A DNA stretch of 64,000 nt from Candidatus Latescibacterota bacterium (GTDB lineage Bacteria; Latescibacterota; Latescibacteria; Latescibacterales; Latescibacteraceae): positions 10,770 to 74,769 of the forward strand of contig JBHPFF010000001.1 of the NCBI GenBank assembly GCA_042572165.1. The letters are read 5' to 3'. Numbering within the stretch: the first letter of the stretch is position 1; each line of letters opens with the position of its first letter. Of this stretch, positions 4,886 to 29,548 are shown piece after piece. The position numbers and the translations under genes are program-made. The notes beneath the pieces are model-generated. The model did no database searches, was not told the DNA's origin, and saw only the letters and a program-made list of their open reading frames with translations.

Positions 4886-4899
4886 TCGGGAGTAAGTCA

Positions 4900-7941: not shown

Positions 7942-7970
7942 TGGAGGGAAAATATAAAGTGACAACCACC

Positions 7971-8621: not shown

Positions 8622-8677
8622 AATCGCATAAAACATTTTAGTAGTATGAAGCAGGATAATTCTGCCGGAGGCAATGA

Positions 8678-10177: not shown

Positions 10178-10255
10178 TAGGTAAAATCTTTGATTTACTG
10201 ACTGTTTACTGACTGTATTAGCTATTCGTAAGTTATTGTTTATATTGATTTGATA

Positions 10256-10290
10256 TGGTGGAGGCGGCGGGAATCGAACCCGCGTCTTTT
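10256..10290 (-). other. orphan tRNA 3'-end fragment (T-arm + acceptor 3' strand + CCA); no 5' half present
   Basis: The minus strand reads GACGCGGGTTCGATTCCCGCCGCCTCCACCA. This gives T-stem GCGGG/CCCGC, loop TTCGATT, acceptor CGCCTCC, discriminator A and CCA. The upstream sequence is AT-rich and cannot form D or anticodon arms. Confidence 0.6.
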
Positions 10291-10439
10291 TTTCATTTTA
10301 CTAATTTCTATACCAATTTGCTTTTTTTGACTCTTTGATTTTCTTCAAAATTGAATTATTTTTCTTTTTATAATATTTCGACTTCTTTTAACGTAATTTC
10401 AAATGCCAAATGATGTTTCCTATAACCAGCTTATTTCAC

Positions 10440-10940
10440 TTTGTGGATCGTCAATCAAGTGTCAGTCACAGAGATAAATCGTTACCTCCATATAAAAGCC
10501 CAACAAAAGCGAAGAGTGGACCTGTTTTCCCTCTTGCAAGTCTCATGCAGGTACGCTCATTCAATTGTCCTCCCCTCAATACTATCTCCTGCTCAATCTC
10601 TGTTGTTAAGACTTCCTTGCCCTTTGAAACAAAAGGGCTAATATAGCGGTCACACCATCTACATTCAGAAGCACATCGGTGGCATCGCATAAGAGCAGAT
10701 CACCAATAAGGACTGCATTCAATCTTACAGAGAGTCGGTTGCCCACGTCAGATCAAGCCGTTGTCGATTACATCGTCATGGCAGAGGTTTGCGGTATGAA
10801 CCAATTCAGTTGCTATACACGCACTCACCAATTTCTCGATATTCGCATATACCATATAACATTCTGCCAATCGAGTAGCCAGAAAGGTGCACAACATTTT
10901 ACCTGGTATAAGAAGATCCCGGATTAATTTCACATCCATA
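10440..10940 (-). pseudogene. polyprenyl synthetase pseudogene (paralog of 17511..18392; frameshifted and 3'-truncated)
   Basis: Two out-of-frame minus-strand ORFs, 10748..10939 and 10466..10690. The first reads PGKMLCTFLATRLAE...ELVHTANLCHDDVIDNG. The second reads EIEQEIVLRGGQLNERTCMRLARGKTGPLFAFVGL. Together they align with residues ~40-190 of the intact synthase at 17511..18392. The second DDxxD half is missing. Confidence 0.8.
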
Positions 10941-11023
10941 ATGAAGATATAACTTTATCGGTTCTCGCTAAAAGAAAATATCTTACCAGTGGGATGAATT
11001 CATCTGATGTTATTTTTTTGTCA

Positions 11024-11644
11024 TTATAATGCAACAGCCAGATTATTTTTAACATAAACATCCTCATAAATAGCAAGCACTTTTCTTACAGCAAAACACA
11101 CACAATCGCAGGATATGGTTGCACCGGAGACTTTACGGATGTCTCTTTTAATCCCTTTTCCACTCTTTACGCTGATATGATCTGAACTTCCCTTACCGAA
11201 AAATTGTTTAAGGAAATTATTACGCGCTATCGGCTTTCCGCGTTTTTCCTTTAACTCCGTAACGGCTAAGTTGTTAACTTTTCCTGTGGTTGTGTCAATT
11301 GCAATAATAAATATAACAGGGCCCCATTTACCGGGTTGTTCCTCCATTAGTGCCATGCGTACTGGCTTACCATCTTTAATTCCAACCAAAAAGTCATACG
11401 TGGTGACATCAGCAACAGCTTCTGATTCAGAGCCTTTTTGGAAGTGAACAAGGTGACCGCCCATTCTTTCTTTAATAACGGCAATTTCAGCATCGGTCAA
11501 TGTGTGATTTATTGTTTTTATCTCATCGACGTCAGGGAACATCTCTTTAAGAGCCTGCTCTTTCGTTAAGAGCGTAATAGCAAAGACGTTCGAGCAAAAA
11601 AGCAAGCCCATTATTGCTAAAATTAATAGTTTTGTTTTTTTCAT
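11024..11644 (-). CDS. secreted FMN-binding domain protein (FMN_bind, RnfG/NqrC/PplA-like flavinylation motif)
   Basis: Probable start MKKTKLLILAIMGLLFCSNVFA (signal peptide). The ORF as listed extends to 11719 and overlaps apbE. Motif KVSGATIS is a flavinylation site of the (S/T)GAT type. Confidence 0.75.
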   Translation of the reverse strand: MKKTKLLILAIMGLLFCSNVFAITLLTKEQALKEMFPDVDEIKTINHTLTDAEIAVIKERMGGHLVHFQKGSESEAVADVTTYDFLVGIKDGKPVRMALMEEQPGKWGPVIFIIAIDTTTGKVNNLAVTELKEKRGKPIARNNFLKQFFGKGSSDHISVKSGKGIKRDIRKVSGATISCDCVCFAVRKVLAIYEDVYVKNNLAVAL

Positions 11645-11663
11645 TTTACAGTTTCTCCTTTTT

Positions 11664-12659
11664 TTAATTATTATTGTTGTCAACGTGCATTCCTTTAGAA
11701 TAAACTCTTTCCTCGTCATCGGTTATCAGAAAAACTTCAATAGAGTGAAGTTTTTTTAGAATTTCGAGGGTTTTTTCTTTGCCAAGGACAAAAAAAGCGG
11801 TTGCCCAGGCATCTGCCAATACCGGATCAGGCGAAATAACAGTAACGCTTGCAAGGCCCTCAGCAGGAAATCCTGTTTCGGGATTGAGAATATGATGATA
11901 TTTTTTCCCATCCTCCTCGAAAACTCTCTCATAATCTCCAGAAGTAACTACGGCCATATCCGTAAGTTCTAGAGAACCTATTACTCCTTCACCTCGTGGA
12001 TTCCTAATGCCGATTACCCATGGTTTATTATTATACGCCCCAAGTGCATAAATGTCACCACCGCCATCTATCAACGCTGAAGTAATTCCGGATTGTTCAA
12101 GTACCCGTTTGGCCTCGTTGAGTGCGTAGCCTTTAGCAATAGATCCCAAATCAATTTTTGTAGTTGCTTTCTTTTTTTTAAGTTCTCCTTTCTCTATAAA
12201 AATATTTTCATAACCAATAGATTTTAAAGTATTATCTAAATCTTCTTTGTTTGGTACCTTTGGGGATTCGTCGAAAAAGCCCCAAAGTGTGATTAAAGGG
12301 AAAACGGTTATATCAAAATTCCCATCGCTCTTTATGCTGACGTCAAGAGCCTTTTGAACAAGTTCGACAATTTCACAGTCGGTACTAGGACTATCATCGG
12401 CATTAAACTTATGAACAGGGCTTTCGGGATTCAAAGCATTGAACTTTATATCAATTTCCTCAATCCTCTCAAAAGCCTTTTCAATGCCTTTTAGAACATC
12501 AATGTCTCCTGGTACCTGAATTGTGAAGAAGGTATCCATCAAAAAACGAGTCTGAGACTGAATATTATCAGGATCTTCTTTTAAAAATATCCATAAGATT
12601 AAAACAAGTACGATAATGCCGACAGTAAAACTAACAGCCCAAAATCTCTTTCTTAACAT
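11664..12659 (-). CDS. apbE: FAD:protein FMN transferase ApbE
   Basis: N-terminal TM anchor. Motifs FLMDTFFTIQV, SALIDGGGDIYALG and SGDYERVFEEDGKKYHHILNP are typical of the ApbE family. 331 aa. Confidence 0.85.
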   Translation of the reverse strand: MLRKRFWAVSFTVGIIVLVLILWIFLKEDPDNIQSQTRFLMDTFFTIQVPGDIDVLKGIEKAFERIEEIDIKFNALNPESPVHKFNADDSPSTDCEIVELVQKALDVSIKSDGNFDITVFPLITLWGFFDESPKVPNKEDLDNTLKSIGYENIFIEKGELKKKKATTKIDLGSIAKGYALNEAKRVLEQSGITSALIDGGGDIYALGAYNNKPWVIGIRNPRGEGVIGSLELTDMAVVTSGDYERVFEEDGKKYHHILNPETGFPAEGLASVTVISPDPVLADAWATAFFVLGKEKTLEILKKLHSIEVFLITDDEERVYSKGMHVDNNNN

Positions 12660-12687
12660 CTTTTAAATCTAAAAAAACATGGTGGCA

Positions 12688-13791
12688 TTAGAATGTCGAC
12701 CTCCAGCCGGCTGTTAAACGGTTGAATTTCAATGTCTCGTCACCAGAAGCTCCCCATTGTCGCCAATCAGCGATGTCATACTGTATCTGTATCATAGAAC
12801 CTGATGCAATATTGATTATAAGTCCCGGAGAAATAGTAACATATTCCTCTTCACCCGGGTTGGTTGTGATAAAACCATTGAAATTATGCAATGCATAATC
12901 GTAATGAAGCATTGCTTTTCCCCACCAGGAAAAGTCCCAGAGGAGCTTTGCATAATATCCGAAAGGTGTAGCATCTTCAAGTGTACTTGCGGCAATACTA
13001 TTTTCCCAGTTACCACCTGCAACCTCGGCACGAGCGGCGAAATTACCCCATACATACCCAGCACCAGCTGAATATCGGGTCATATTATATTTCCCGTCAT
13101 CGTCCCATTTCCCTCTCGCTAAAGATCCCTGGAACCTGAAAGCGCCGATCTCCGGTTCGACATGAATCATTGCAGTAGGTGAATTATTATTATCGTTGTA
13201 CAGATTTTTTTGTCCGCCTTTTCCGCCATTCAAAAGATAAATATAGGTTGGTAATGAGAGGAATGGGAGTTCAAGCGGTTTGTAAAGCTCGATACCGGTT
13301 TCATGCATAGCTCCAAGAAAATTATTTATGGAGAATTTGCCACCGTTTGTCTCTTCCTCCCAGAAAAGCTCGGCTCCGTAATCCCATGTAAACTGTGGCT
13401 TGAGAATACCAATAGACATTTCAATATCATAGGGCATCATCACCGTAAAAACAGCTCTTCTGAATTCATCGAACTTAGGGCTGATATTAGAGCCTTTTGT
13501 GTTTCCCAGGTCTGTCCCAAATCGGGGTGTTGCACCTGTTTTGGCATTGAACATAGGTTGAAGCTCAACTGATATTCTATCTGAAATCTCAGATGATATA
13601 TAGATAATTGTCTCTGTGAAAGCCATGCCGGCAGACTCATGACCTTTAATTCCGTTCATCTTTCCATCTTTATAATCAAACAAGGTCAGTTTGACGTGGG
13701 CACCTGTCGTTAATCCCTGTGCCGAAACCTGAGTGACTATCAAAATGAGAAACATGCAGAAAGTCATAAACAACAATAATTTTCTTAACAT
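12688..13791 (-). CDS. hypothetical outer-membrane beta-barrel (porin-like) protein
   Basis: Signal peptide ending VSAQG. Alternating amphipathic segments. C-terminal ...AGWRSTF, the aromatic terminal residue expected of OM barrels. No named family. Confidence 0.5.
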   Translation of the reverse strand: MLRKLLLFMTFCMFLILIVTQVSAQGLTTGAHVKLTLFDYKDGKMNGIKGHESAGMAFTETIIYISSEISDRISVELQPMFNAKTGATPRFGTDLGNTKGSNISPKFDEFRRAVFTVMMPYDIEMSIGILKPQFTWDYGAELFWEEETNGGKFSINNFLGAMHETGIELYKPLELPFLSLPTYIYLLNGGKGGQKNLYNDNNNSPTAMIHVEPEIGAFRFQGSLARGKWDDDGKYNMTRYSAGAGYVWGNFAARAEVAGGNWENSIAASTLEDATPFGYYAKLLWDFSWWGKAMLHYDYALHNFNGFITTNPGEEEYVTISPGLIINIASGSMIQIQYDIADWRQWGASGDETLKFNRLTAGWRSTF

Positions 13792-13890
13792 AGCAAATAA
13801 CTCCTTTTGTTTTTATCTTCTACCTGCATTGAAACTCTGCTGTGTTTTAAGACATTCCTGTTTTTAGAGACCTGTCTGTATCAATAGTTA

Positions 13891-14361
13891 CTAGGCCTTT
13901 CTCAGCCAGATATCATATAAATTGAGAAGCTGGATAATCAATAGCGTTATTGCAAGAGTGGAGCCTGCTATAACCAATACTGTTGCAAAAGCAGTTGATA
14001 CATACGGGATTAAATACATCAAACCGATATCTATAGGAATAAGAACGAAAGGAAAAACACCTAAGAAGCATTTGAGTTTATCACTAACACCGGTAAACAT
14101 AAGAACGGTTAGTGGTATTGCAAAACAAAAAATCCCGTAAAATGGCAAATAGATATGTGCATGCTCGGTCACTTCCATATATTCCATATAACCATATGAT
14201 TCCGCAATCAACGAAGGATTGAACTCAGTGCTTATATAGATTTGTATTGCAAAGACTATATAAACCAGACCGACAAAGCATAAAAGAGCTGTTATAAAAA
14301 GTTTTTTACATAAAGGTAATTCCGAAAGCTTAAAATCTTGCATTTTACTTCTCCTTAACAT
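13891..14361 (-). CDS. hypothetical integral membrane protein (~4 TM helices)
   Basis: Hydrophobic 156-aa ORF in operon position between the barrel protein and the small CxxCH protein. No recognisable motifs. Confidence 0.45.
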   Translation of the reverse strand: MLRRSKMQDFKLSELPLCKKLFITALLCFVGLVYIVFAIQIYISTEFNPSLIAESYGYMEYMEVTEHAHIYLPFYGIFCFAIPLTVLMFTGVSDKLKCFLGVFPFVLIPIDIGLMYLIPYVSTAFATVLVIAGSTLAITLLIIQLLNLYDIWLRKA

Positions 14362-14454
14362 GTGAAAATGAGGGGTTTATGTTTCTCTTTGCCCAATAAG
14401 CATCATTTTTGTAATGGGCCTATCTTTTAATCATTCGTAAACAGATCACTCGTG

Positions 14455-14871
14455 CTAATGACAGAGCATACAGGAATAATCGCCGTTTATATCGTACCCA
14501 TGAAAATCACTGTTAGTACCTATATTGACATCTGCATTGGTAACGCTAATATCTTTTGACCCATATCCCTTGTCTCCCGGAGTAACCGTATATGAGCCTG
14601 CACCGACATCACTAAAAACATAGGTTCCTGTTGCATCTGTAAGTGCGGACGCCTGGCTTTTACCAGTCAATTGAACAGTAAGACCTACTATGGGATTTCC
14701 TGAGCCATCAGTGAATTTACCGGTTATATTGTATGTTCCGCTGGCATCAACTCCTTTGTCATAATCATCATTTGCACTGAAAATACAGCTAACAACCGAT
14801 AAGATTAACAAAATGTGTAAAAGAACAAGAAATATTTTCAATTTGAACCCCCTTTCAAAAAAATGGTTCAT
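14455..14871 (-). CDS. small secreted (possibly lipo-)protein with Ig-like/CarbopepD_reg-like domain and C-terminal CxxCH
   Basis: Signal peptide with LSVVSC. GSGNPIVGLTVQLTGKSQASALTDATGTYVFSDVGAGSYTV resembles carboxypeptidase-regulatory-like beta-sandwich domains. The protein ends ...NGDYSCMLCH-stop (verified on DNA: tgt atg ctc tgt cat tag). Confidence 0.55.
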   Translation of the reverse strand: MNHFFERGFKLKIFLVLLHILLILSVVSCIFSANDDYDKGVDASGTYNITGKFTDGSGNPIVGLTVQLTGKSQASALTDATGTYVFSDVGAGSYTVTPGDKGYGSKDISVTNADVNIGTNSDFHGYDINGDYSCMLCH

Positions 14872-15044
14872 CTGTCCTGGTTCATCGTGAAATGGGATTT
14901 ACAGCTTCATAAATTAGTCACTAATAACGGGGATTTTCAATCCCTCTTGACATAAGATATTACTGTGGCTGTAAAAGCCAAGCCCTTAGGGTGCTTCGCA
15001 GCCTTGAAAGGTCGAGCTTGTTAATAGTTTTCTGGTCTCCTTTC

Positions 15045-15385
15045 TTTTAGCTTTTATTTCTTCACGAGCCTTTCCTGCTCGCGGTCAAGTCTCCGCTTTT
15101 GCCCATGAAGACGACCCCGCGTCTTTTGTTTCAGGCCATTCATGCCTTCTTGGCGATAGTTCCTTCACCACCGCACAACTGATGTACGGGATACCTCAAG
15201 AATCAATGCAACTTCAACTTGTTTCATGACCCGCCGTAGCATCCGTAAACAGCGACATCTGAGTTCGTATTGCGCTTCGCTACTTATCTTTCTTGCATCT
15301 CGTTTTTCCATACAATAAAGATAACAATTTTATCCTAATTATGCGATATATTTATTCGCCGGCTTAATAGTATCCAGCCGCCTAT
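15045..15385 (-). mobile_element. IS630-family element remnant (degraded 5' end, in-frame stop in transposase start)
   Basis: About 80-85% identical to 22232..22430. Shared strings include cctttcctgctcgcggtcaagtctccgcttttgc, tttcaggccattcatgccttct and cgccggcttaatagtat. The reading frame equivalent to MRWW... hits TGA after 3 codons. Confidence 0.55.
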
Positions 15386-15562
15386 ATGTATACTCCCCAT
15401 AAAACATATTTACTTCTGGATGTTGAGAATAAATTTCTTTTTATTATGTAAGAGTAAACTATTATTATTCCAAATTCACTCTCCATCTATATATCACTTC
15501 GAAAAAGAGAGACAGTTACATATCGTGGATAAGTCGGCATTATCGTCAGTTTTCAAAGCGAA

Positions 15563-15952
15563 TTAAGAGAGTATTTTTGATATCTTATTACTTAACAAAT
15601 CGAGATCCACAGGTTTCTCAAGGAAATCCTCAACTGGAAGCCAATATTCACTGCTATCGCTTGAACTGAATCCGAGTGGAAATTTCTCGTTTACAGCAGT
15701 CAGCAGCAAAATGGGAATATCTTTGAGTTTTTCGCAGGAATGTTTTATCCGACGGGCAAATTGAAATCCAGCTGAATTGTTTTCCGGAAACATAACATCC
15801 AGTATGATAAGATCAGGTCGTCGTTTATTCATGCTCTTTTCTGCGCTCTTTATGTCTAGTTCAATTTTTACTTCGTGACCGGTATCGCGTAATACAGTTG
15901 CTGCTGCAGTTGCGAAATCTTCATCATCATCAATAATCATGAGATAAGACAT
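15563..15952 (-). CDS. stand-alone response regulator receiver (CheY-like)
   Basis: MSYLMIIDDDEDF...PDLIILDVMFPE...: phospho-acceptor Asp context. 129 aa with no output domain. Confidence 0.8.
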   Translation of the reverse strand: MSYLMIIDDDEDFATAAATVLRDTGHEVKIELDIKSAEKSMNKRRPDLIILDVMFPENNSAGFQFARRIKHSCEKLKDIPILLLTAVNEKFPLGFSSSDSSEYWLPVEDFLEKPVDLDLLSNKISKILS

Positions 15953-17429
15953 TTTGCTTCTCCTTATTTTTATTCACATGTTTTATTGAAGATGGAAACA
16001 CTAATTCAAATTTTGTTCCTTCTTTAGGTATACTGGTAATTCGCACATTAATATGATGTACCTGAGCCACATTTTTAACTATGGCTAGCCCCAATCCCGT
16101 CGAATTTTTATTGTGACGTACGGCTTCGTCAGTCTTGTAATACTCATCAAATATTTTTGGGAGTTTATCGCCGGGGATGCCTATACCCCTGTCCTTGATA
16201 GTAATTACAGGACCTGTTTCTGTTGATGGTCTACAATATACACGCACTCGCCCCTTTTCATACGAATAGATGACTGCGTTGGAAATTAAATTTACTAAAA
16301 GCATCTTCATATGATCTTCAACAGCCACTACATATGCCTGTTCTAATTCCTTATCAAAAACGATCTTTCGTTTTTCCGCTAAGGGGAGAACTTGAACCAT
16401 ACACCATCTGATTATTTCAGCCAGATCAAGTTTTTTCCAGCAAAGCGTATCCTTCTTCACTGAATGTAAATTAACAAGCTGTAACATTTCTTGTATTTCC
16501 TGTCCAAGTTTTTTGCTTCTGTTGGAAATTCTTTCCAGAACTTTAAGAGCCTTGTCAGGAAAGACTCCGCAATATCCTTTAAGGAGTAATTGTATATTGG
16601 CGTCAATCGCAGCAAACGGGGATTTTAATTCGTGCGTAATGCGAAGAAGATGTCTTGTTTTTTCTCTCTGGATCTCTAAAAGACGTTTATTGGTTTTAAC
16701 CAGTTCAAATTCTCTCTCAAGAACCATTTTCGATAGATATGACGCAAGATACCAAACTATGAACCAAATTCCTAACGAAGACATAACATTAATAATGGTT
16801 ATAGTTACATTATTTTCAATTTGAATCCGCAAGCTTCTGTCGATATACATGCCAGCTGAGGGAATTATTCCGTATTTTTCAACACATACACATGCCACAT
16901 AGAGAATACCTGCTAAAATAGTTACAATAAGGCTTTGTTTGCTTGAGAAAAAAATACAGGCTAAAACAATATGGAAAAGATATGTAAACGGTATAAATGT
17001 CTCCAAACTTCCTGAATAATGGATAACACCGGTTAGGATTATCAGATCAATGATTACTTGAGCCCATATATTATTCATGATACTGTCGTAAGTTTCGGCT
17101 CTTTTCATCTGCATAATATGCTTCAGATATGCAATATTTATGATAATTAACATCCCTGCAGTAACAATAGCCCACGAAGTTTGAGGGTGAAGTCCAAAGA
17201 ATTGAATACTGTCGGGGAAAAATCCGAGTATTCCAAATATGGTTAATAGTCCAATCACAATCCAGCGCAAATGGCAAAACCACAACGCATATTTCATCAA
17301 TATGGGTAAAGGGAGTTGTGTAAATACTCTTTTTTGAGTATCTTTTTGAGACAAGTTCACTTCAGGTATTACCGATAATTCATAAACATTCATTTTTGTT
17401 TCAGCCTTTAATAACATTGAACATTCCAT
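15930..17429 (-). CDS. sensor histidine kinase with multi-TM N-terminal sensor region
   Basis: About 7 hydrophobic helices. H-box RITHELKSPFAAIDANIQLL. HATPase_c motifs (DRGIGIP, GLGLAIVKNV). Confidence 0.85.
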   Translation of the reverse strand: MECSMLLKAETKMNVYELSVIPEVNLSQKDTQKRVFTQLPLPILMKYALWFCHLRWIVIGLLTIFGILGFFPDSIQFFGLHPQTSWAIVTAGMLIIINIAYLKHIMQMKRAETYDSIMNNIWAQVIIDLIILTGVIHYSGSLETFIPFTYLFHIVLACIFFSSKQSLIVTILAGILYVACVCVEKYGIIPSAGMYIDRSLRIQIENNVTITIINVMSSLGIWFIVWYLASYLSKMVLEREFELVKTNKRLLEIQREKTRHLLRITHELKSPFAAIDANIQLLLKGYCGVFPDKALKVLERISNRSKKLGQEIQEMLQLVNLHSVKKDTLCWKKLDLAEIIRWCMVQVLPLAEKRKIVFDKELEQAYVVAVEDHMKMLLVNLISNAVIYSYEKGRVRVYCRPSTETGPVITIKDRGIGIPGDKLPKIFDEYYKTDEAVRHNKNSTGLGLAIVKNVAQVHHINVRITSIPKEGTKFELVFPSSIKHVNKNKEKQNVLSHDY

Positions 17430-17510
17430 ATATTTAGAGTATAGTATTCGATAATCCTATTATGGATGTTCTTTATCATTAAAAAATTTTCTGTTTCTCG
17501 TCGGTAAAAT

Positions 17511-18392
17511 TTAACATAATACTTTTATTTCTAAGTTATTACGGTCGAAAGACCATTGGAGATCACTTTTAATAAACTCTTTAAGGCCTTTACGGTTCCG
17601 GGGCCATTCGTTGAGACAATCAAGAGCAGAAATGCATAGCTCCACTATTTTTTTATTAATTCTTTGTGGTGTCTCCATAGACTGTGGAAGTGTGAATTTC
17701 CCGCGCCGCAGGTCACTTCCAAGGGTTTTACCGTAACGTTGTTCATCACCGATAATATCGATAAGATCATCGGCGAGTTGATATGCAGTGCCGATAAGGT
17801 ATCCTGACTCCTCAAGGGCTGCTGAGAGAGCGCTATTGTCACCCCCGCAGACTAATCCAACAAAAGCGAAAAGCGGTCCGGTTTTCCCACGACTAAGCCT
17901 CATGCAGGTGGTTTCATCCAATTGTCTTCTTCGCAAAACCAACTCTTGCTCGATCTCTGCCTGGCAGACCTCTCTGACTTTTGTTATGAAAATTTCTGTA
18001 TAACGACCCTTCTGAGTTTTCTGAATCATATCCATCGCCTCGCACAAAAGCAGGTCGCCTGTCAGAACAGCCTGCGAAGGGTTTGTGGCTTTCCAAAACG
18101 TTTGGACTCCCCTTCTTATCTGGCCATTGTCAATAACATCGTCATGCAACAAGCTTGCAGTATGAACCAGTTCGACCGCTGCACATGCCCTCACCAGCGT
18201 TTCACTGTTGACAGATATCTTATCATACGATGCCAGTCGATCAGCCAGACGTGTGCGCAGCATTTTACCTGGCATAAGAGATTCTCGAGTAATTTCACAA
18301 CCAAAAGAGTAAATTACTTTTTCGGTCCGTGTCAAAAGAAAATCTCTAACCAGTGAAACGAATTCATTTAATGATGTTATTTTAGCTGTCAT
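17511..18392 (-). CDS. polyprenyl diphosphate synthase (trans-isoprenyl diphosphate synthase)
   Basis: First DDxxD motif LLHDDVIDNGQIRRG and second motif YQLADDLIDIIGD. Also GKMLRTRL and the RGKTGPLF region. 293 aa. Confidence 0.85.
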   Translation of the reverse strand: MTAKITSLNEFVSLVRDFLLTRTEKVIYSFGCEITRESLMPGKMLRTRLADRLASYDKISVNSETLVRACAAVELVHTASLLHDDVIDNGQIRRGVQTFWKATNPSQAVLTGDLLLCEAMDMIQKTQKGRYTEIFITKVREVCQAEIEQELVLRRRQLDETTCMRLSRGKTGPLFAFVGLVCGGDNSALSAALEESGYLIGTAYQLADDLIDIIGDEQRYGKTLGSDLRRGKFTLPQSMETPQRINKKIVELCISALDCLNEWPRNRKGLKEFIKSDLQWSFDRNNLEIKVLC

Positions 18393-18419
18393 TTTTCTGT
18401 TAAATTAAGTTTCATGTTG

Positions 18420-18890
18420 ACAAACACGTTATCATAAAGAGCAAACACTTTTTTCACTGCAAAACAAGCACAATCGGAAGATATAGTTGCCCCGCTGATG
18501 GCGCGGATATCTTTACTAATTCCTTCCCCACTTTTTACGCTGATAGGATCTGAACTCACTTTGCCAAAAAACTGTTTTAAAAAAATTCTGATGTGCTATC
18601 GGACGACCTAGTTTCTCTTTATAAGACATTACAGCTAAATTAATAAAGTTTCCCTGTATTTGCATCTATATGCTATGATAAATTCAACCGGTCCCCATTT
18701 CCCCGGGTGTTCCTCGATAATTGCCATTCGGACTACCATGTTGTTTTTCATGCCAATGTAAAAATCATATGCAGTCGTTTCGGCGACATTTTCAGATTGT
18801 GATCCTTTCTGGTAATGAACAAGGGAACCGCCCAATCTTTCTTTAATGTTTGCGATTTCCTAATCCGTCAAAATATGATTTGTGTTTTTC
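18420..18890 (-). pseudogene. FMN-binding protein pseudogene (paralog of 11024..11644; premature stop, N-terminus replaced by IS fragment)
   Basis: Nucleotide and protein homology to the intact copy (MGGSLVHYQKGSQSENVAETTAYDFYIGMKN...EEHPGKWGPVEFII). An in-frame TAG replaces the Ala codon in ...ILTD*EIANIKERLGG. The signal-peptide region is absent. Confidence 0.75.
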
Positions 18891-19323
18891 ACTTCTTATC
18901 TGTTGTCGCACAATCGATAGTTTCGAGATACGCTCGTCCCATGTTTTTTCCGTCTGTTTCAAAAGCGGCGGCAACCAGAGACTTGTCCTCAACACCGCGA
19001 CCACGCTTGCCCGGGCGACGACCTCCGACAAAGGTTTCGTCAACCTCCACCTCGCTGGTAAGAGGGAACATCTGTGATGAGGCCCTAATTGACCGGATTT
19101 TATGTAACAGGAGCCATGCCGTCTGGTAGGATCGTATGTCGAATTTACGTTTCAATTCCATAGCGAACATATCTTTCTTCGATGTAGCAACCAGATAGAC
19201 CGACCAGGAAAGCGTCAAAAGTGGATGACGCAGGCGATGAAAAACTGTTCCGGCAGTAACAGACGTTTGATGTCGGCACGCCGTGCATTGAAAACGGCGT
19301 TGTTTTTCAATGAAATATGCCAT
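18889..19323 (-). pseudogene. IS1595-family (ISXO2-like) transposase, N-terminal 144-aa fragment only
   Basis: Zn-ribbon FQCTACRHQTSVTAGTVFHRLRHPL. Helix region YQTAWLLLHKIRS. The start of the DDE domain, EVEVDETFVGGRRPGKRGRG, typical of IS1595 transposases. The ORF then stops and abuts the FMN-bind pseudogene. Confidence 0.65.
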
Positions 19324-19528: not shown

Positions 19529-20809
19529 TTAGTTTATTTTTTCATCGATAAAAAGTTCTTTAATAGACTCAACAAGCCGGTCTCGCACTTCTCCCGATTC
19601 GGAAGTTCTCATTGTGATAGTAGGATTGTGAAGGATTTTTCTCACAATACGGCGGGTTACAAGATTAATAGCCTCATAGGTTTCAGCACTCACTCTATTG
19701 TTGATTATTTTGAGTTCTTCCAGACGAATATTTTCGCATTTTTTGCGAAGATTATTGATTACTGGAATAACCTCGCGCTCCTCAAGCCATGTGCAGTAAT
19801 CATCAATCTTTTCCCCGATAATTTCTTTTGCCTTCACGGCCTCGGTTTTTCTTCGATCACGGTTTCCCACTGTCACATCCTCGAGATTATCAATGTTAAA
19901 TAAATGAGTGTTTTTTATTTCAGCCACATCAGGTTCAATATTCCTCGGAACACCAAGATCGATAAGGACAAGTGGATTCCCATTACGATGTTTGATATTC
20001 TTAATCAGAAGATTTTTTGTAATTAACGGAAGCCTTGAAGCAGCGGAGGTGATAATTATATCCACGTTGTCGAATATTTCAGCCATACTCTCAAATGGTA
20101 TGATTTTCCCTGACAATTCTTCAGCCAATTCATTTGCGCGTTCGGATGTTCTGTTTGTTATGTAGAGTTCTTTAATACCGTTATCAACCAGTTGTTTTGC
20201 ACATATTTTCCCGATTTTGCCGGCTCCGACCAGAAGAACTTTCCGTTTTTCGAGCCCGCCAAAAATCTTTTTCCCTAACAAAACTGCTGCTGAACTGACA
20301 GAAACGATACCTTCGCTGATTGAAGTTTTGTTTCTTATCAGCTTTCCAACCTGAAATGCCTGATGGAAAAGCCGGTTAAGAACCGAACCTGTGCATCCGG
20401 TTTCACAGGCTTTAGCATATGAATATTTTATCTGTCCGAATATTTGCGTTTCACCCAGTATCATTGACTCAAGACCGCTTGTTACATTAAAGAGATGTTC
20501 TATAACCTTATTCCCTGTATAGAAGAAAAAGTGCCTGAGAAAAGCTTCCTCCATACCCGATACCTCGAGGATGTAGCGATTTATTTCCTCACGTACTTCA
20601 TCAGGCGGTTTGCAGATAAATGCATAAATTTCCGTACGGTTGCAGGTCGAAACAACCACGCATTCGCGTATACCGTTTAAATTATGGATCTCTTTCAGTG
20701 CCGCAGAGATACTTTCTTTGTTGAACGAAAACCTTTCGCGAATTTCAACCGGTGCGGTTTTATATGAAATCCCTATAAGGATAAAGTTTTCTTTGCGCAA
20801 TCTAACCAT
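19529..20809 (-). CDS. hemA: glutamyl-tRNA reductase
   Basis: N-terminus ILIGISYKTAPVEIRERFSF, active-site region VVSTCNRTEIY and NADPH-binding VLLVGAGKIGKICAKQL. 426 aa. Confidence 0.9.
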   Translation of the reverse strand: MVRLRKENFILIGISYKTAPVEIRERFSFNKESISAALKEIHNLNGIRECVVVSTCNRTEIYAFICKPPDEVREEINRYILEVSGMEEAFLRHFFFYTGNKVIEHLFNVTSGLESMILGETQIFGQIKYSYAKACETGCTGSVLNRLFHQAFQVGKLIRNKTSISEGIVSVSSAAVLLGKKIFGGLEKRKVLLVGAGKIGKICAKQLVDNGIKELYITNRTSERANELAEELSGKIIPFESMAEIFDNVDIIITSAASRLPLITKNLLIKNIKHRNGNPLVLIDLGVPRNIEPDVAEIKNTHLFNIDNLEDVTVGNRDRRKTEAVKAKEIIGEKIDDYCTWLEEREVIPVINNLRKKCENIRLEELKIINNRVSAETYEAINLVTRRIVRKILHNPTITMRTSESGEVRDRLVESIKELFIDEKIN

Positions 20810-20978: not shown

Positions 20979-22004
20979 TTATTTAAGCGATTCAATGGAG
21001 TTCGTCAGCAACGCTTTCACATATTTAGGATTGTGAACTCCATCGCTCCTGTCCTCCAAACACATCTGGTAATTCATCCTTGCACCAGCAACGTCTGAAG
21101 AATAGGTTCCGGTGACAGCACTGCCGCCTTCTTCTGTCATTATACCTGCTGTAATGAGTAGTGCCGCAAGTTCTGAAAGCAACTCCTCGACTTCCGTTTG
21201 AGCATCATTTAAATCAAACGACTCGAGATCAGCATGACACGACACGCAGCCTGCTACATTAGGTTCAATTGTACCATGATAATCATACCCCGTCTTCATG
21301 GTATGTCCGCCGGCCTGAACACCGTACGGTGTCGCCATGTGGCAGGTCGGGCAGCCATCGGTTATCATGGTCGTATGCGCTGAATTCGTATACGACTCAG
21401 GGCCGCTGACTTCGTAAGCGCCGAAACCGGCCAGAATATTACCCTGCGGGCCGTGATGTGCCCCGAAGCGTGATGAAGTTACTTCATAATCACCACCGCC
21501 TACCGCAAGCGTGTAACCATAATCTCTCGCCTGATGACAGGTAGCACAAAGACTGCCCTTGCCAAAGTCTACGGTTGTTGAAGCACCCATCATACTGCTT
21601 ACCATGTCAATAGAACCAGTAACAACCACGTCATAATCTGTCTCGTCATAATTAGTATGGATGTTATGGCAGGTACGGCAATTGGGTTGCGTAGGATTCA
21701 CGATACCTGTAACTTCTTTACCGGCAACGTGCTGCCTGAATCCTTCACTTGTATGACATAGAGCACAACTCGCTGATCCACCTCGTTCAGAATTGCCAGC
21801 TGTTGCATGAGTCGATGCCTGATATTGGCTCTGTCTGGCAAGAAGTTCAGTAGAAACGCTGTGACAGGTTCCACATAAGCCCGTTCCATCGGCGCCATCT
21901 TCTCCTGTCGGTCCTTGCTCTCCTTCACATCCGAGAAACAATGAAACGACACAAACCAGGAAAACCCAGGCGAACACAATTGAGATAGCTTTTGTTTTTT
22001 TCAT
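20979..22004 (-). CDS. hexaheme c-type cytochrome lipoprotein
   Basis: Signal peptide with lipobox LFLGC. Six CxxCH motifs (CGTCH, CALCH, CRTCH, CATCH, CPTCH, CVSCH). 341 aa. Confidence 0.85.
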   Translation of the reverse strand: MKKTKAISIVFAWVFLVCVVSLFLGCEGEQGPTGEDGADGTGLCGTCHSVSTELLARQSQYQASTHATAGNSERGGSASCALCHTSEGFRQHVAGKEVTGIVNPTQPNCRTCHNIHTNYDETDYDVVVTGSIDMVSSMMGASTTVDFGKGSLCATCHQARDYGYTLAVGGGDYEVTSSRFGAHHGPQGNILAGFGAYEVSGPESYTNSAHTTMITDGCPTCHMATPYGVQAGGHTMKTGYDYHGTIEPNVAGCVSCHADLESFDLNDAQTEVEELLSELAALLITAGIMTEEGGSAVTGTYSSDVAGARMNYQMCLEDRSDGVHNPKYVKALLTNSIESLK

Positions 22005-25797: not shown

Positions 25798-27192
25798 ATG
25801 GGAATTTTTACTAAAACGAAATTTCAGGGCGGATATAAATTCAAAAACTTTGAAGGCGCAGCCAAACCGGTTTTGCATGAAATGCCCGTGCCTGAAAAAA
25901 TTGATATCCCCCTTTCAGATATTTTTTCGGATACTTTTGTACTTGCAGTCAGAGAGGGCGATACACTGCGTGCCGGGGATAGAATCATCAAATCGAACAA
26001 CGATTCAAAAGTTTCGCTTATTTCTCCTGTCAACGGTACTGTTTCAAAAGTCAACTCAGATAGAATTATTATTGCATCCGATGGGTCTTCAAATATTAAC
26101 CCTTTAAATGGCCATAAAGAAAACCCCTGGCATTTGGACCGTTCTGAAGTTTTCGATATTTTCTGTGAAACAGGATGCTCATTATTGTGCAGCAACCAAT
26201 TTACTTCAGTAAGCGACTGCGATAAAATCAAATATATTATTATTAATGCGGTTCATAACTCTCCCTTGAACCAGTCATGGATGCCTGATATAATCGGAAA
26301 CAGCGTTATTTTTTCACATGGTCTGAGAACCGTGAACGCATTATTCCCCGAGGCAGAAACAGTTATTGCGATAAACAACAGGAACAGAAAGTACTTTGAT
26401 GCTCCCGAAATAAAAGAGCATGCAAAAATCAAAATCATGTCGGACCGTTATCCCCAGGAACATCCCGAACTTCTTTCGAGGGATACGGTGAATAGAGGGC
26501 TCGTTTCCACGGATGGTGAAAGTGATGATTCAATCCTTATAATGCACTTTTCCGATGTTGTTCACATTGCCGAAGTCATGACACAGGGACGCCCCTTAGT
26601 TGACAGGATTCTTATGATCGCCGGTCCCGGAGTTTCCGAACCCGGGTGGTACCGCGTTCGAATTGGAACGACCCTTGAAGAAATAAAAAAGCAGCTTTTA
26701 AAAAGCGATATTAATAGCCCCTGGAGAATAATAAGGGGGAATCCGCTTTTAGGCGAAGGATTACAATCGCTTGATACATCAATTCTGCCTTCCGACAGTG
26801 AAATATCAGTAATCCGCGAACATGCGACCAGGGAATTATTCAGTTTCATGCGGCCAGGATTCGCTGCTGACAGCTATACAAAATTCACTGTTGCGGAACT
26901 TATTCCTCTGTTTACCAAGAAGCTTGAAACAAATCTTCATGGCGGTGTTCGCCCTTGCGTACAGTGCAATTACTGCGATCAAGTCTGTCCGGTAGATATA
27001 TATCCTTTTCTGATATGGAAGCATGTAAAGGTGAATGAGATTGAGGAGAGTTTCCGGTTCAGGCCTTATAAATGTATTGAATGTGGGTTGTGCGATTATG
27101 TATGTCCATCAAAGATTGATATTTTACAATCAGTTATAAATGCCAAAGATGAGTATCGGAAGCTGAGGAGTGCTGATGAACTTTCTGATTGA
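25798..27192 (+). CDS. rnfC: RnfC-like subunit (C-terminal 2x[4Fe-4S]; canonical NADH/FMN-binding glycine motifs not recognisable)
   Basis: RnfC N-terminal barrel-sandwich region (VREGDTLRAGDRIIKSN...VNGTVSKV). C-terminal CVQCNYCDQVCP and CIECGLCDYVCP. No GGAGFP-type motif can be found in the middle domain. Confidence 0.7.
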   Translation: MGIFTKTKFQGGYKFKNFEGAAKPVLHEMPVPEKIDIPLSDIFSDTFVLAVREGDTLRAGDRIIKSNNDSKVSLISPVNGTVSKVNSDRIIIASDGSSNINPLNGHKENPWHLDRSEVFDIFCETGCSLLCSNQFTSVSDCDKIKYIIINAVHNSPLNQSWMPDIIGNSVIFSHGLRTVNALFPEAETVIAINNRNRKYFDAPEIKEHAKIKIMSDRYPQEHPELLSRDTVNRGLVSTDGESDDSILIMHFSDVVHIAEVMTQGRPLVDRILMIAGPGVSEPGWYRVRIGTTLEEIKKQLLKSDINSPWRIIRGNPLLGEGLQSLDTSILPSDSEISVIREHATRELFSFMRPGFAADSYTKFTVAELIPLFTKKLETNLHGGVRPCVQCNYCDQVCPVDIYPFLIWKHVKVNEIEESFRFRPYKCIECGLCDYVCPSKIDILQSVINAKDEYRKLRSADELSD

Positions 27193-28258
27193 TCGTTTCA
27201 GGGAAATAATCGAATACTATGACGAGAAGTTTGAACACACAAAGTTCAGACCCGCAATGGATACCGTGTCAACATTCTTTTTCTCCCTCAAAACGGTTAC
27301 ACCGCTTTCAGGTCCTCATATCAGGGATAGTTCAGATCTTAAACGTTACATGTTACCTGTAATGTTTGCTGCCGCACCGACAGTGTTGGCATCCATTTAC
27401 TTTTTCGGATGGCGATCTCTTGCTGTCCTGATTTTGAGTTATGTTGTCGGGATTTTCATTGAACTTGGCTTTGCGATACACAATAATGATGAAGTAACTG
27501 AAGGTATGTTTGTCACCTGCATGCTCTACCCCATGATACTACCACCGACAATACCGTTCTGGATGGCTGCTGTCGGCATAGCGGTGGGCATTATCATTGG
27601 TAAAGAAGTATTTGGAGGAACAGGTAAAAACATATTTAATCCGGCAATTGTCGGGAGAGTATTCCTCGCGGTCACATTTCCCGTTGAAATGGCATCGAAA
27701 TGGGTTACGCCGTACAACGGACTTATGGGAGGACTCGTACACTGGGGGAAATCCGGAGATGCGGTGACTGCTGCATCACCTCTTATCGATTTCAAAGGCG
27801 GTGAGACGGCAGCCAGATTATTTGACATGTTTATTGGAAATACGAGCGGTTCACTGGGAGAAACCTCAGCAATTCTCATTATTCTTGGCGGTATATTTCT
27901 TATTTTTACACGGGTCAGTAACTGGCGACTTCCGCTTTCAACCATACTGTCCGCTATAATATTAGCAGCAATTATGAATGCTGCAAATCCCGAAGAATTT
28001 GCTTCGCCACTCTATCATCTGGCCGGTGGAGGCCTTCTTTTCGGAGCGTTTTTCATGGTCACCGATCCTGTCACAAGCCCGTTCACTAATATCGGAAAAT
28101 GGATTTACGGGATATTGATTGGCATCATAATCATTGTTATTAGGAATATGTCGGGTTATCCAGAAGGTACGATGTTTGCCATATTGCTTATGAATATATT
28201 TTCACCTATAATCGATGATGCCGTTTTGGCGTTTAAATTCAGAAAGGCAGGTGAATGA
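27170..28258 (+). CDS. rnfD: Rnf complex subunit D (NqrB family)
   Basis: Polytopic membrane protein. FNPAIVGRVFL. C-terminal FMVTDPVTSPFT, the FMN-attachment Thr region conserved in RnfD/NqrB. Confidence 0.85.
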   Translation: MLMNFLIDRFREIIEYYDEKFEHTKFRPAMDTVSTFFFSLKTVTPLSGPHIRDSSDLKRYMLPVMFAAAPTVLASIYFFGWRSLAVLILSYVVGIFIELGFAIHNNDEVTEGMFVTCMLYPMILPPTIPFWMAAVGIAVGIIIGKEVFGGTGKNIFNPAIVGRVFLAVTFPVEMASKWVTPYNGLMGGLVHWGKSGDAVTAASPLIDFKGGETAARLFDMFIGNTSGSLGETSAILIILGGIFLIFTRVSNWRLPLSTILSAIILAAIMNAANPEEFASPLYHLAGGGLLFGAFFMVTDPVTSPFTNIGKWIYGILIGIIIIVIRNMSGYPEGTMFAILLMNIFSPIIDDAVLAFKFRKAGE

Positions 28259-28833: not shown

Positions 28834-28936
28834 ATTGCAGAGTTACAGAGTGGCAGGGTGAAAATAAGAGGGACAGAGCATAAGGTATAAAGTAGAAGTA
28901 AAGACTTGCATTTTGAATTAAAACACGGAATTTAAC

Positions 28937-29545: not shown

Positions 29546-29548
29546 TCA

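Follow-up and report, generated by a model that had tools for sequence, protein, structure and literature searches.

What does a double-membraned bacterium do with a secreted FMN-binding protein whose gene lies next to those of a flavin transferase and an outer-membrane porin? [quoted passage not shown] The features considered are as follows.

10256..10283, minus strand: tRNA/tmRNA 3'-end fragment of 28 nt (T-arm plus ...GCCTCCACCA), by direct reading
10466..10939, minus strand: polyprenyl synthase pseudogene (type B) with several frameshifts and stops, ending before the second DDxxD
11024..11644, minus strand: secreted RnfG/NqrC-fold FMN-binding protein, 206 aa (PF04205, E 9.6e-8)
11664..12659, minus strand: ApbE FAD:protein FMN transferase (PF02424, E 7.8e-86)
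12688..13791, minus strand: outer-membrane porin-fold beta-barrel, 367 aa (AF2 model and Foldseek)
13891..14361, minus strand: 4-TM inner-membrane protein, family Aq_1264_TM (PF27139 in relatives)
14455..14871, minus strand: monoheme c-type lipoprotein, 128-138 aa, with a CarboxypepD_reg (transthyretin-like) domain (PF13620, E 1.3e-11)
15563..15952, minus strand: stand-alone receiver-domain response regulator (type A; PF00072)
15930..17429, minus strand: multi-TM (PilS-like 6TM) sensor histidine kinase (type A; HATPase_c, HisKA, weak 6TM_PilS)
17511..18392, minus strand: intact trans-polyprenyl diphosphate synthase, long-chain-type (type A; PF00348, E 1.2e-41)
18389..18895, minus strand: FMN_bind pseudogene (type A) with one in-frame stop and two frameshifts
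18889..19323, minus strand: IS1595-family transposase remnant (partial PF12762 match)
19529..20809, minus strand: HemA (glutamyl-tRNA reductase), a conserved neighbour upstream of the cluster in Latescibacterota
20979..22004, minus strand: hexaheme lipoprotein cytochrome with an MtrC/MtrF domain II/IV-like module (PF22113, 39.5 bits vs cutoff 30)
25798..30139, plus strand: Rnf-type operon (RnfC/NqrA-like, RnfD, RnfG, RnfE, RnfA), listed for context as a second likely ApbE client

A mosaic of two paralogous clusters

At the window locus two paralogous clusters, type A and type B, are merged into one mosaic, and each makes up for what the other has lost. The type-A remnant comprises a dead FMN_bind gene, the intact polyprenyl synthase, the histidine kinase, and the response regulator, and the truncated type-B copy comprises the monoheme lipoprotein, the 4-TM protein, the porin, ApbE, the intact FMN_bind gene, and a dead polyprenyl synthase. 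Each cluster gene survives intact exactly once in the window, such that the two remnants combined give the full set. All eight intact cluster genes exhibit dN/dS values of 0.14-0.26 against relatives, and purifying selection acts on them.

The polyprenyl synthase paralogs previously described as flanking the operon are the scar of this merger; the 10466..10939 copy is a pseudogene with approximately 50% amino acid identity to the intact enzyme over residues 27-185 only. The 28-nt fragment, in a region where no full tRNA or tmRNA gene was found, marks the truncated end of the type-B cluster as an att-like scar. On the other side, the earlier inventory missed the dead FMN_bind gene, which is 5'-truncated with its first ~42 codons gone. 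The adjoining IS1595 remnant stands where, by synteny with two relatives (L001 and L006), the type-A lipoprotein, 4-TM, and porin genes were lost; ApbE is absent from type-A clusters. HemA shares 89% nucleotide identity with L006 and is likewise upstream of the cluster in another relative (L036). The kinase and response regulator, formerly taken for spacers, are both conserved cluster members in relatives: the kinase (approximately six hydrophobic segments) is kept there, as is the position of the regulator, which shares 84% amino acid identity with that of L001.

The flavoprotein, its transferase, and their envelope partners

The topology check proposed in the sequence-only reading gave signal peptides for the FMN_bind protein and the porin, a hydrophobic segment at residues 8-26 of ApbE, four transmembrane segments in the small membrane protein of the operon, and a lipobox in the CxxCH protein. 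The claim of a secreted FMN_bind protein with an (S/T)GAT site was also borne out. More specifically, the 11024..11644 product is extracytoplasmic and carries VSGAT at residues 172-176, of which S173-G174-A175-T176 is invariant in 24 of 24 homologues in the family alignment, and it is a predicted ApbE substrate with Thr176 as the acceptor. The Asp of the canonical flavinylation motif D-x-x-[ST]-G-A-[ST] (PMC12052999) sits two residues off. The only significant PDB matches, whether by sequence or by structure (AF2 model, pLDDT 83.8), are RnfG and NqrC, and dN/dS is 0.22 against L036. An RnfG-type housekeeping identity, left open in the sequence-only reading, was rejected because the window encodes a separate RnfG at 28255-28833 in its rnf operon; the TIGR01947 score is 32 bits for the cluster flavoprotein versus 101.8 for that true RnfG, and on rnfG models it reaches 32-52 bits against model cutoffs of 102-205. 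Since its N-terminal hydrophobic segment is short, the signal peptide is probably cleaved, leaving no RnfG-type anchor. PplA is a two-domain lipoprotein; the cluster flavoprotein has a single RnfG/NqrC-fold domain and no lipobox, and is therefore not a PplA homologue.

ApbE does lie beside the FMN_bind gene on the same strand, as had been noted. The enzyme is membrane-anchored and periplasm-facing, with the 8-26 segment as N-terminal anchor or signal, and exhibits a dN/dS of 0.14; the Rnf complex, encoded 14 kb off, may be another of its clients.

The porin-like outer-membrane protein was confirmed as a secreted barrel with a C-terminal Phe (AF2 pLDDT 84.5). Its best Foldseek matches are the 16-strand porins PorB, Omp32, OprP/O, OmpF/C, and OmpM1, with E values down to 2e-11 and a TM-score of about 0.6 versus diffusion porins. 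An MtrB-type sheath was rejected, as this general-porin fold is too small to enclose an MtrA-like wire; the window barrel also gave no MtrB_PioB match. No other gene accompanies that of the flavoprotein as regularly as the porin gene does (in about 33 of 35 related loci); even ApbE is less constant.

Distant members of the family still encode the 4-TM protein beside the porin and the flavoprotein. Its K97 is invariant and Y34, F80, D111, G133, and W152 are nearly so, and the family comparison revealed no invariant His or Cys. A distant 4-TM/flavoprotein-like pair (L040) is without the SGAT site and stands in a copper-efflux context. Among the cluster proteins no transmembrane electron carrier was identified, and the function of the cluster therefore stays inferred.

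The CxxCH-terminated protein does end in CMLCH, but it is a lipoprotein rather than merely secreted: across 11 sequences there is no variation at the lipobox Cys, at His124, or in C134-x-x-C137-H138. NCBI places the start at 14841, and among the homologues seen the family occurs in Latescibacterota only. The hexaheme lipoprotein cytochrome exists as described (six CxxCH motifs, lipobox FLGC), although its distance from the CxxCH gene is 6.1 kb and not 7 kb. Latescibacterota relatives keep the order cytochrome-HemA-cluster, with hexaheme synteny in a JGI 417-kb contig and in L035, and this lipoprotein is a candidate terminal or outer partner. The intact polyprenyl synthase possesses both DDxxD motifs, with small residues (A, S) at -5/-4 of the first, and holds a DmkB/HepT/IspB-like position; it scores under every NCBIfam equivalog cutoff, and its dN/dS is 0.22.

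A cluster family across phyla and its known counterparts

The porin-ApbE-flavoprotein order recurs at about 35 loci in at least 10 diderm phyla, and this recurrence far exceeds chance. The invariant core is a 16-strand-type porin with an RnfG/NqrC-fold secreted flavoprotein bearing (S/T)GAT, usually with ApbE adjoining; all members come from uncultured MAGs and are known from sequence alone. NusG_II, inferred to be EetA, is found in clusters of Elusimicrobiota, KSB1, Cloacimonadota, Firestonebacteria, WOR-3, Desulfobacterales, and others. The same clusters also carry a PF07456-CbiQ fusion, equated here with EetB+FmnA, which in Listeria form a FAD exporter (PMC9973259). Some relatives' clusters encode a polyprenyl synthase, some a MenA above the TIGR00751 NCBIfam cutoff; an FNR-like NAD(P)H oxidoreductase is also present in relatives, and FAD synthetase lies within the cluster in L013 and L014. 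At eight Desulfobacterales loci, cytochrome b561 and a triheme cytochrome form a quinol-dehydrogenase-like pair upstream, and an MtrC/OmcA-like 10-11-heme lipoprotein (PF22113, E 1.5e-51) lies directly downstream; clusters of most phyla have no cytochromes. The rnf genes adjoin the cluster in L009, L014, and L024, lie within 10 kb of it in L004, and are 14 kb off in the window; most of the ~35 loci have none within 10 kb. No description of a porin-flavoprotein cluster was found in the literature searched; the gene cluster is previously undescribed and present in many double-membraned bacterial phyla.

As in Listeria monocytogenes (DmkA, DmkB, FmnA, FmnB, PplA, Ndh2, EetA, EetB), an extracytosolic ApbE (FmnB) adjoins a secreted FMN_bind substrate and a polyprenyl synthase is dedicated to the system, and relatives' clusters share NusG_II, PF07456-CbiQ, and MenA-type DmkA. 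The presence of these EET genes in relatives means that the flavin-EET reading is partly supported at the family level. In the window, the partners sought (EetA, EetB, Ndh2) and MenA were all absent from the 64 kb. Unlike the Listeria locus, the cluster is without Ndh2, has a one-domain substrate without lipobox in the window, and adds a porin, the 4-TM Aq_1264_TM protein, a two-component system, and c-type cytochrome lipoproteins in a diderm host. With RnfG/NqrC the flavoprotein shares its overall fold and C-terminal (S/T)GAT flavinylation site, but it falls far under rnfG cutoffs, is encoded apart from rnf, travels with a porin, has a shifted motif Asp, and bears only a short, probably cleaved hydrophobic segment.

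Porin-cytochrome conduits (MtrCAB, Geobacter Pcc, and OetABI of syntrophic SRB) likewise combine a barrel, a periplasmic redox protein, and lipoprotein multiheme cytochromes, matched here by the MtrC-module hexaheme of the window and the MtrC/OmcA-like decaheme of Desulfobacterales. However, the cluster barrel is of the 16-strand general-porin fold and not a 20-26-strand sheath, its periplasmic partner is a flavoprotein instead of a multiheme cytochrome, and cytochromes are absent in most phyla; OetABI has been described without any flavin component (PMC10553843). Meheust et al. (2021) and Huang et al. (2024) likewise used genomic context to find uncharacterised systems in which ApbE and an extracytosolic flavinylated carrier form a conserved cluster. 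The NapH-like, MsrQ-like, PepSY-like, DsbD, NQR/RNF-like, and DUF4405 membrane components of those systems are absent from our cluster, whose recurrent membrane proteins, porin and Aq_1264_TM, are mentioned in neither paper. Listeria-type flavin EET has been inferred in a Gram-negative candidate phylum from the 'NUO-DMK-EET-FMN' genes of Ca. Effluviviacota; in the portion of that report considered here (PMC11323493), homologues are given by gene name, without a porin-flavoprotein core, Aq_1264_TM, or cross-phylum cluster conservation.

A possible electron relay and its alternatives

We tentatively propose, with somewhat less than even confidence, that the locus is a periplasmic flavin-based electron relay fitted to a double-membraned cell; the probable role of the cluster is to export electrons from respiration. 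Thr176 of the flavoprotein would receive FMN from ApbE, and quinol would then reduce the flavoprotein on the periplasmic side of the inner membrane, the long prenyl tail of the quinone coming from the cluster's own polyprenyl synthase, with MenA added in relatives. The cofactor-less 4-TM protein would be the probable docking or quinol site for this step. Acceptors of the reduced flavoprotein, at or beyond the outer membrane, may be small redox-active solutes or shuttles, with the dedicated porin as their passage, or lipoprotein c-type cytochromes; candidates for the latter are the monoheme lipoprotein with the CarboxypepD_reg domain and the hexaheme MtrC-like lipoprotein nearby. Regulation of the gene set would fall to the multi-TM kinase and the receiver protein. 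Such a relay would operate like Listeria flavin-based EET while standing outside that locus family. Weighing against it are the absence of Ndh2, MenA, EetA, and EetB from the window, a 4-TM protein without invariant His or Cys, the small barrel of diffusion-porin type, the cytochrome-free clusters of most phyla, the shifted motif Asp, the loci near rnf, the L040 pair, and the type-A clusters without ApbE.

The same genes might instead serve reductive metal handling, in which the porin admits Fe(III) or Cu(II) as ion or chelate, the periplasmic flavoprotein reduces it, and the 4-TM protein transports the reduced ion or passes it on, to be assimilated or detoxified; taken jointly, we regard these steps as unlikely. 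The three-gene core would supply one component per compartment, many uncharacterised flavinylation systems are linked to iron assimilation (PMC8238504), and the 4-TM protein has a Met/Glu/His-rich periplasmic loop with its conserved Asp and Lys membrane-embedded. In L040 a distant Aq_1264_TM adjoins a flavoprotein homologue that is degenerate and has a His-rich tail, next to CusCBA and a CopA-like P-type ATPase, but that homologue is without the flavin site and may have diverged in function. The window has a CusCBA-like system of its own (2128-7941), yet on the opposite strand, past the att-like scar, and non-syntenic in relatives. Moreover, no Feo, VIT1, P19, or TonB was noted among the annotated ORFs of the ~35 clusters, in which many flanking ORFs are unannotated, and the co-occurring polyprenyl synthase, MenA, and MtrC/OmcA-like cytochromes point to respiration.

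It is distinctly improbable, in our estimation, that ApbE mainly matures RnfG and RnfD of the nearby Rnf, that the FAD exporter of relatives serves Rnf, and that the additional FMN_bind protein acts as an RnfG-like subunit, either accessory or alternative. The proximity of rnf in the window, L004, L009, L014, and L024 is what this would predict, eetB and apbE frequently co-localise with rnf (PMC9973259), and RnfG and NqrC are the only structural relatives of the flavoprotein; however, Rnf needs no outer-membrane porin, its operon already has an RnfG, the cluster protein is without an RnfG-type anchor, and rnf is distant from most loci. Flavin scavenging or trafficking, with flavin import by the porin and by the ECF-type transporter of relatives and with ApbE as an Ftp-like FAD pyrophosphatase, is to us the least probable reading of all. 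Treponema Ftp, an ApbE-family protein, hydrolyses periplasmic FAD (PMC4767422), most ECF transporters are importers, and FAD synthetase lies inside the L013 and L014 clusters. Contrarily, the invariant acceptor threonine implies a covalent substrate and no shuttle, PF07456/EetB is a demonstrated flavin exporter, neither the window nor other Latescibacterota clusters have a transporter, and the quinone genes, kinase, and cytochromes are left unaccounted for. Finally, two pseudogenes, a truncated transposase, and the tRNA/tmRNA 3' fragment could mark ongoing loss at a locus whose function is already gone, which we hold to be very improbable: the losses are complementary, because exactly one intact copy per cluster gene remains, the dN/dS values of all eight intact genes are low, and the porin retains 97% amino acid identity to that of L036.

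Gene content and origin of the locus

Matches of 100% identity among NCBI proteins place the window in a Candidatus Latescibacterota metagenome-assembled genome. The locus lies on the minus strand, next to genes for HemA and a hexaheme cytochrome, and contains the following features.

Features of the locus and its neighbours, in window coordinates
22004..20979, minus, hexaheme lipoprotein cytochrome with six CxxCH motifs, lipobox FLGC and one MtrC/MtrF domain II/IV module (PF22113, 39.5 bits)
20809..19529, minus, HemA
19323..18889, minus, IS1595-type transposase, truncated
18895..18389, minus, FMN_bind gene, dead copy
18392..17511, minus, polyprenyl synthase, intact
17429..15930, minus, histidine kinase, multi-TM
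15952..15563, minus, stand-alone receiver protein
14871..14455, minus, small lipoprotein with a CarboxypepD_reg domain and CMLCH terminus
14361..13891, minus, 4-TM protein
13791..12688, minus, secreted barrel, 367 aa
12659..11664, minus, ApbE
11644..11024, minus, FMN_bind gene, intact copy
10939..10466, minus, polyprenyl synthase, dead copy
10283..10256, minus, tRNA/tmRNA 3' end of 28 nt (T-arm plus GCCTCCACCA); the complete gene is absent

A scan of positions 9800-22600 returned 46 promoter-like sites (36.2 ± 6.4 expected from shuffled sequence) and 10 terminator-like sites (8.5 ± 2.9 expected). These counts are close to the shuffled expectation and were not used; the genes are described as one putative operon from their short intergenic gaps of 19-99 bp.

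The FMN_bind and polyprenyl synthase pair forms a direct repeat with about 71% identity at a spacing of 7.37 kb. Of the decayed members, the upstream FMN_bind copy lacks the first ~42 codons and carries one stop and two frameshifts; the downstream synthase copy is interrupted by several frameshifts and stops and breaks off ahead of the second DDxxD motif. This repeat with its two mutually decayed copies is explained by comparison with relatives that carry one of two paralogous cluster versions. Type A is ordered HemA-lipoprotein-4TM-porin-FMN_bind-synthase-histidine kinase-response regulator and has no ApbE, and window positions 18895..15562 share 82.5% DNA identity with type A loci L001/L006. 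Type B is ordered HemA-lipoprotein-4TM-porin-ApbE-FMN_bind-synthase-histidine kinase-response regulator, and positions 14861..11046 share 90.5% DNA identity with type B locus L036. These identities indicate that the window holds types A and B in tandem. Losses are complementary between the two types, so that each gene is left with a single intact copy, and all eight intact genes show dN/dS values of 0.14-0.26 against their closest relatives, indicating that the composite cluster has been kept by selection. The window is a clear example of two paralogous clusters that merged through complementary gene loss.

Further traces of rearrangement were identified. In the type-B block (11046-14861), dS against L036 is 0.09 for the porin, 0.30 for the 4-TM protein, 0.31 for ApbE, 0.37 for FMN_bind, and 0.91 for the lipoprotein; this tenfold spread among adjacent genes suggests recent recombination inside the cluster. 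The IS1595-type remnant (18889-19323) stands where the syntenic type-A cluster has the lipoprotein, 4-TM protein, porin, and 5' part of FMN_bind. Just beyond the truncated synthase pseudogene, the 28-nt tRNA/tmRNA 3' end looks like an integration (att) scar.

Proteins encoded by the cluster

The intact FMN_bind product, hereafter the flavoprotein, has a short signal peptide, a single FMN_bind domain without a lipobox, and an RnfG/NqrC fold; its sequence profile and AF2 model (pLDDT 83.8) had no PDB matches other than RnfG and NqrC. The sequence-only reading had allowed that this protein might turn out to be a housekeeping RnfG, and this is not what we observed. The flavoprotein scores far below the rnfG cutoffs (32.1 bits on TIGR01947, cutoff 102; 52 bits on NF045876, cutoff 205), and the rnf operon of the window has its own RnfG (28255-28833), which reaches 101.8 bits on TIGR01947.

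The flavoprotein carries D-I-R-K-V-S-G-A-T in its C-terminal region, and S-G-A-T is invariant among 24 aligned homologues. The canonical ApbE substrate motif is D-x-x-[S/T]-G-A-[S/T], located in an extracytosolic domain, and a D-to-A change in this motif is reported to have only minor effects (PMC12052999). In the flavoprotein family, the conserved Asp is at -8 rather than at the canonical -6, which is occupied by Arg, Asn, or Thr. Given this two-residue shift, we treat flavinylation as predicted. A Cys eight residues past the acceptor Thr is nearly invariant in the family alignment. The adjacent ApbE matches PF02424 over its full length (E 7.8e-86) and has an N-terminal hydrophobic anchor.

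The barrel has a signal peptide and ends in Phe. Its AF2 model (pLDDT 84.5) has about 16-17 strands, with short helices in the internal loop (inward, L3-type), and its closest folds are PorB, Omp32, OprP/OprO, OmpF/C, and OmpM1 (E down to 2e-11, TM-score ~0.6). The signal peptide, the modelled barrel with its L3-type loop, and the aromatic C-terminus together predict a general (16-strand) porin, and the model points to a diffusion-porin fold unlike the MtrB-type sheath. Neither the barrel nor the 4-TM protein matches any Pfam or NCBIfam model; some barrel homologues match PF07396/PF13609. The 4-TM protein is a member of Pfam's new Aq_1264_TM family, which comprises just 67 representatives at 50% identity among 1.8 billion proteins and whose longer relatives (226-595 aa) likewise have no Pfam matches. 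K97, D111, G133, and W152 are conserved in this protein, with no conserved His or Cys among 23 homologues; a role as heme-b carrier, by analogy with MsrQ, PepSY, and DUF4405, was rejected on this basis.

The small lipoprotein has an invariant lipobox Cys, His124, and a terminal CxxCH, and the homologues found are from Latescibacterota only. We speculate that its terminal CxxCH and that of decaheme proteins from Desulfobacterales could be a shared barrel-threading tag; this is kept as speculation because such a terminal motif may mark no more than the final heme in an MtrC fold. The intact synthase (17511-18392) retains the two DDxxD motifs, the first preceded by small residues, as is typical of long-chain polyprenyl synthases that make quinone side chains, and falls under every NCBIfam equivalog cutoff. 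In the hexaheme lipoprotein, the single PF22113 module scores 39.5 bits (cutoff 30), and the protein is roughly half as large as MtrC.

Related clusters and known electron-transfer systems

Related loci were collected in two ways, with the flavoprotein alignment as query against species-representative genomes and through context look-ups of individual homologues; all homologues come from metagenome-assembled genomes. About 35 distinct loci carry the cluster; these counts depend on open reading frames that we called ourselves and labelled with HMMs built for this analysis. The loci are distributed across Latescibacterota, KSB1, Eisenbacteria, Cloacimonadota, Armatimonadota, Fibrobacterota, Firestonebacteria, Chitinivibrionales, Planctomycetota, WOR-3, Elusimicrobiota, and Desulfobacterales. 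The usual order is [PNPOx-like or MenA]-histidine kinase-response regulator-[polyprenyl synthase]-NusG_II-PF07456/CbiQ fusion-[Aq_1264_TM]-porin-ApbE-flavoprotein. The porin is present in ~33 of 35 loci, ApbE in ~29, the PF07456/CbiQ transporter in ~22, the 4-TM protein in ~16, the synthase in ~9, and MenA in ~3. The 4-TM protein, porin, and flavoprotein look like an ancient three-gene module, since a distant Aq_1264_TM member (P0196) also adjoins a porin homologue and a flavoprotein.

Quinone and flavin genes accompany several of these clusters. MenA lies inside the clusters of L002, L008, and L014, scoring above the TIGR00751 cutoff in L008 and L002, and in L002 (315-1823) it is fused to a PNPOx-like domain. 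Stand-alone PNPOx-like genes precede a kinase and a sigma-54 regulator in Firestonebacteria and Cloacimonadota. A FAD synthetase gene is placed between porin and ApbE in L013 and L014; L013 8398-8961, L014 6982-7590, and L016 2984-3463 are listed with the PNPOx-like and FAD synthetase genes. A FNR-like NAD(P)H oxidoreductase was found in L002 and L008. Cytochromes bracket the cluster in eight Desulfobacterales loci (L025, L028-L034; e.g., L031 2912-12896). Upstream are an octaheme lipoprotein, a triheme membrane cytochrome, and cytochrome b561; the gene directly downstream of the flavoprotein encodes a lipoprotein with 10-11 hemes and MtrC/OmcA domains (PF22113 E 1.5e-51, OmcA-like_N).

[quoted passage not shown] The ApbE of the window corresponds to the extracytosolic ApbE-family transferase (FmnB) of the Listeria locus, and the long-chain-type synthase at 17511-18392 may correspond to DmkB. 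PplA, in contrast, is a surface lipoprotein with two FMN_bind domains, whereas the flavoprotein of the window has one domain and no lipobox. A DmkA-type MenA occurs only in relatives, as no UbiA/MenA was found in the 64-kb window, and no Pyr_redox-type match indicative of Ndh2 was obtained among the ~40 window open reading frames scanned, mostly larger ones. EetA and EetB/FmnA, partners of the kind that the earlier reading proposed to look for elsewhere in the genome, gave no match in the 64-kb window with HMMs made from relatives; they are set within the cluster in ~22 related loci from other phyla. EetB belongs to PF07456, and FmnA is among the CbiQ-type T components; together the two export FAD for Listeria FmnB, and EetA is co-localised with EetB in 3,328 genomes (PMC9973259). 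By its position beside PF07456, we infer NusG_II to be EetA. The clusters of relatives hold almost the whole Listeria gene set, and some also have MtrC/OmcA-type cytochromes.

The resemblance to MtrCAB/Pcc conduits is limited. The 367-aa barrel, with ~16-17 strands and porin-like best folds, differs from a sheath of 20-26 strands; it has no MtrB_PioB match, and no periplasmic multiheme gene is present in the cluster of the window. The hexaheme lipoprotein, with one PF22113 module and about half the size of MtrC, can at most be predicted to share the surface location of MtrC/OmcA. Meheust et al. (2021) described NapH-, MsrQ-, PepSY-, DsbD-, and NQR/RNF-like flavinylation systems, none with a porin or Aq_1264_TM, in a text that mentions neither NusG nor prenyl genes; Huang et al. 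(2024) added DUF4405. No cluster gene has a Pfam domain of these classes, and the 4-TM protein has no conserved heme-ligand His pair. According to a 2024 genome paper, Listeria-type EET genes occur in Effluviviacota, a Gram-negative candidate phylum, called there the first case outside Gram-positives (PMC11323493), and the general idea of Gram-negative flavin EET has therefore already been published. The description of OetABI, a porin-cytochrome conduit of syntrophic sulfate-reducing bacteria, names no flavin component. Identity of the Desulfobacterales flanks with OetABI was considered but not adopted: the paper, compared at the level of description, mentions neither ApbE nor an FMN component. 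A limited literature search yielded no description of the porin-flavoprotein core. Judged from sequence, the locus would belong with ApbE-dependent extracytosolic electron transfer, with the window as a structurally unusual mosaic member.

Proposed function and neighbouring regions

The window encodes an extracytoplasmic RnfG-like protein that is genetically tied to a dedicated porin and is probably flavinylated. In relatives, this flavoprotein is tied to FAD export and menaquinone-type prenylation, and in two lineages to MtrC-type cytochromes. We hypothesize that the flavoprotein acts as a quinol-fed periplasmic electron relay, for which the 4-TM protein would be the sole candidate membrane partner, and that electrons may be delivered to acceptors that pass through the porin or sit on lipoprotein cytochromes. 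In outline, such a relay resembles the mechanism of Listeria flavin-based EET. The locus nevertheless falls outside that locus family by several of its defining traits, namely PplA architecture, Ndh2, and, within the window, MenA and EetA/B.

Four other explanations deserve consideration. Reductive metal handling would fit the setting of L040, where the gene after a distant Aq_1264_TM member encodes a degenerate 209-aa flavoprotein homologue with a His-rich tail and no SGAT (8001-9091), and where this flavin-less pair adjoins CopA-like P-type ATPase and CusCBA genes (9182-16465); the quinone and cytochrome links of the cluster speak against it. A housekeeping role tied to Rnf could likewise explain why the cluster is adjacent to rnf in L009, L014, and L024, but not readily the constancy of the porin. 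Flavin salvage is difficult to reconcile with the invariant acceptor Thr, as is simple gene decay with the low dN/dS.

A bolder form of the periplasmic relay, which we consider unlikely as a whole, is that porin and RnfG-like flavoprotein physically assemble into a gate for electrons at the outer membrane, comparable to MtrAB but flavin-based. In this scheme, the flavinylated domain would dock at or in the periplasmic mouth of the porin-sized barrel and pass electrons straight to surface lipoprotein cytochromes. These would be, in the window, the CarboxypepD_reg lipoprotein with its C-terminal heme tag and the hexaheme protein, and, in Desulfobacterales, the MtrC/OmcA-like decahemes. The 4-TM protein (Aq_1264_TM) would serve as a cofactor-less quinol:flavoprotein oxidoreductase anchor of a new kind. 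If true, this would be an unrecognised trans-envelope EET route in at least 10 uncultured diderm phyla.

Good accounts of flavinylation-based extracytosolic electron transfer exist only for Listeria-type systems of Gram-positives and for the Rnf/Nqr complexes, and the cluster, which is tightly conserved, bears on how a flavin-based route would cross or address an outer membrane. Should it prove respiratory, EET capacity would reach into many candidate phyla from sediments and groundwater, and the cluster would offer a minimal unit of three to five genes suited to heterologous expression.

Several neighbouring regions were also noted. The Rnf-type operon (25798-33336) is preceded by a Rex-type regulator (25103-25786) and includes an RnfC-like subunit with NqrA_N/RnfC_N, SLBB, and Fer4 matches and without Complex1_51K, followed by RnfB-like Fer2/2Fe-2S, NuoE-like, and NuoF-like proteins; L004 has the same gene set upstream of its cluster. 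The region 2128-8621 holds a CusCBA-like RND efflux set (OEP, CusB-type HlyD_D23, AcrB family) and, after it, a gene for a secreted 226-aa protein that carries a CGPSCPVC motif and matches nothing in Pfam; the efflux genes (2128-7941) were dropped as cluster members, as relatives show no synteny. Finally, positions 46000-58000, which hold housekeeping genes (MutS, MutL, MiaA, S1), have a G+C content of 0.45-0.50, compared with 0.35-0.43 across most of the window.
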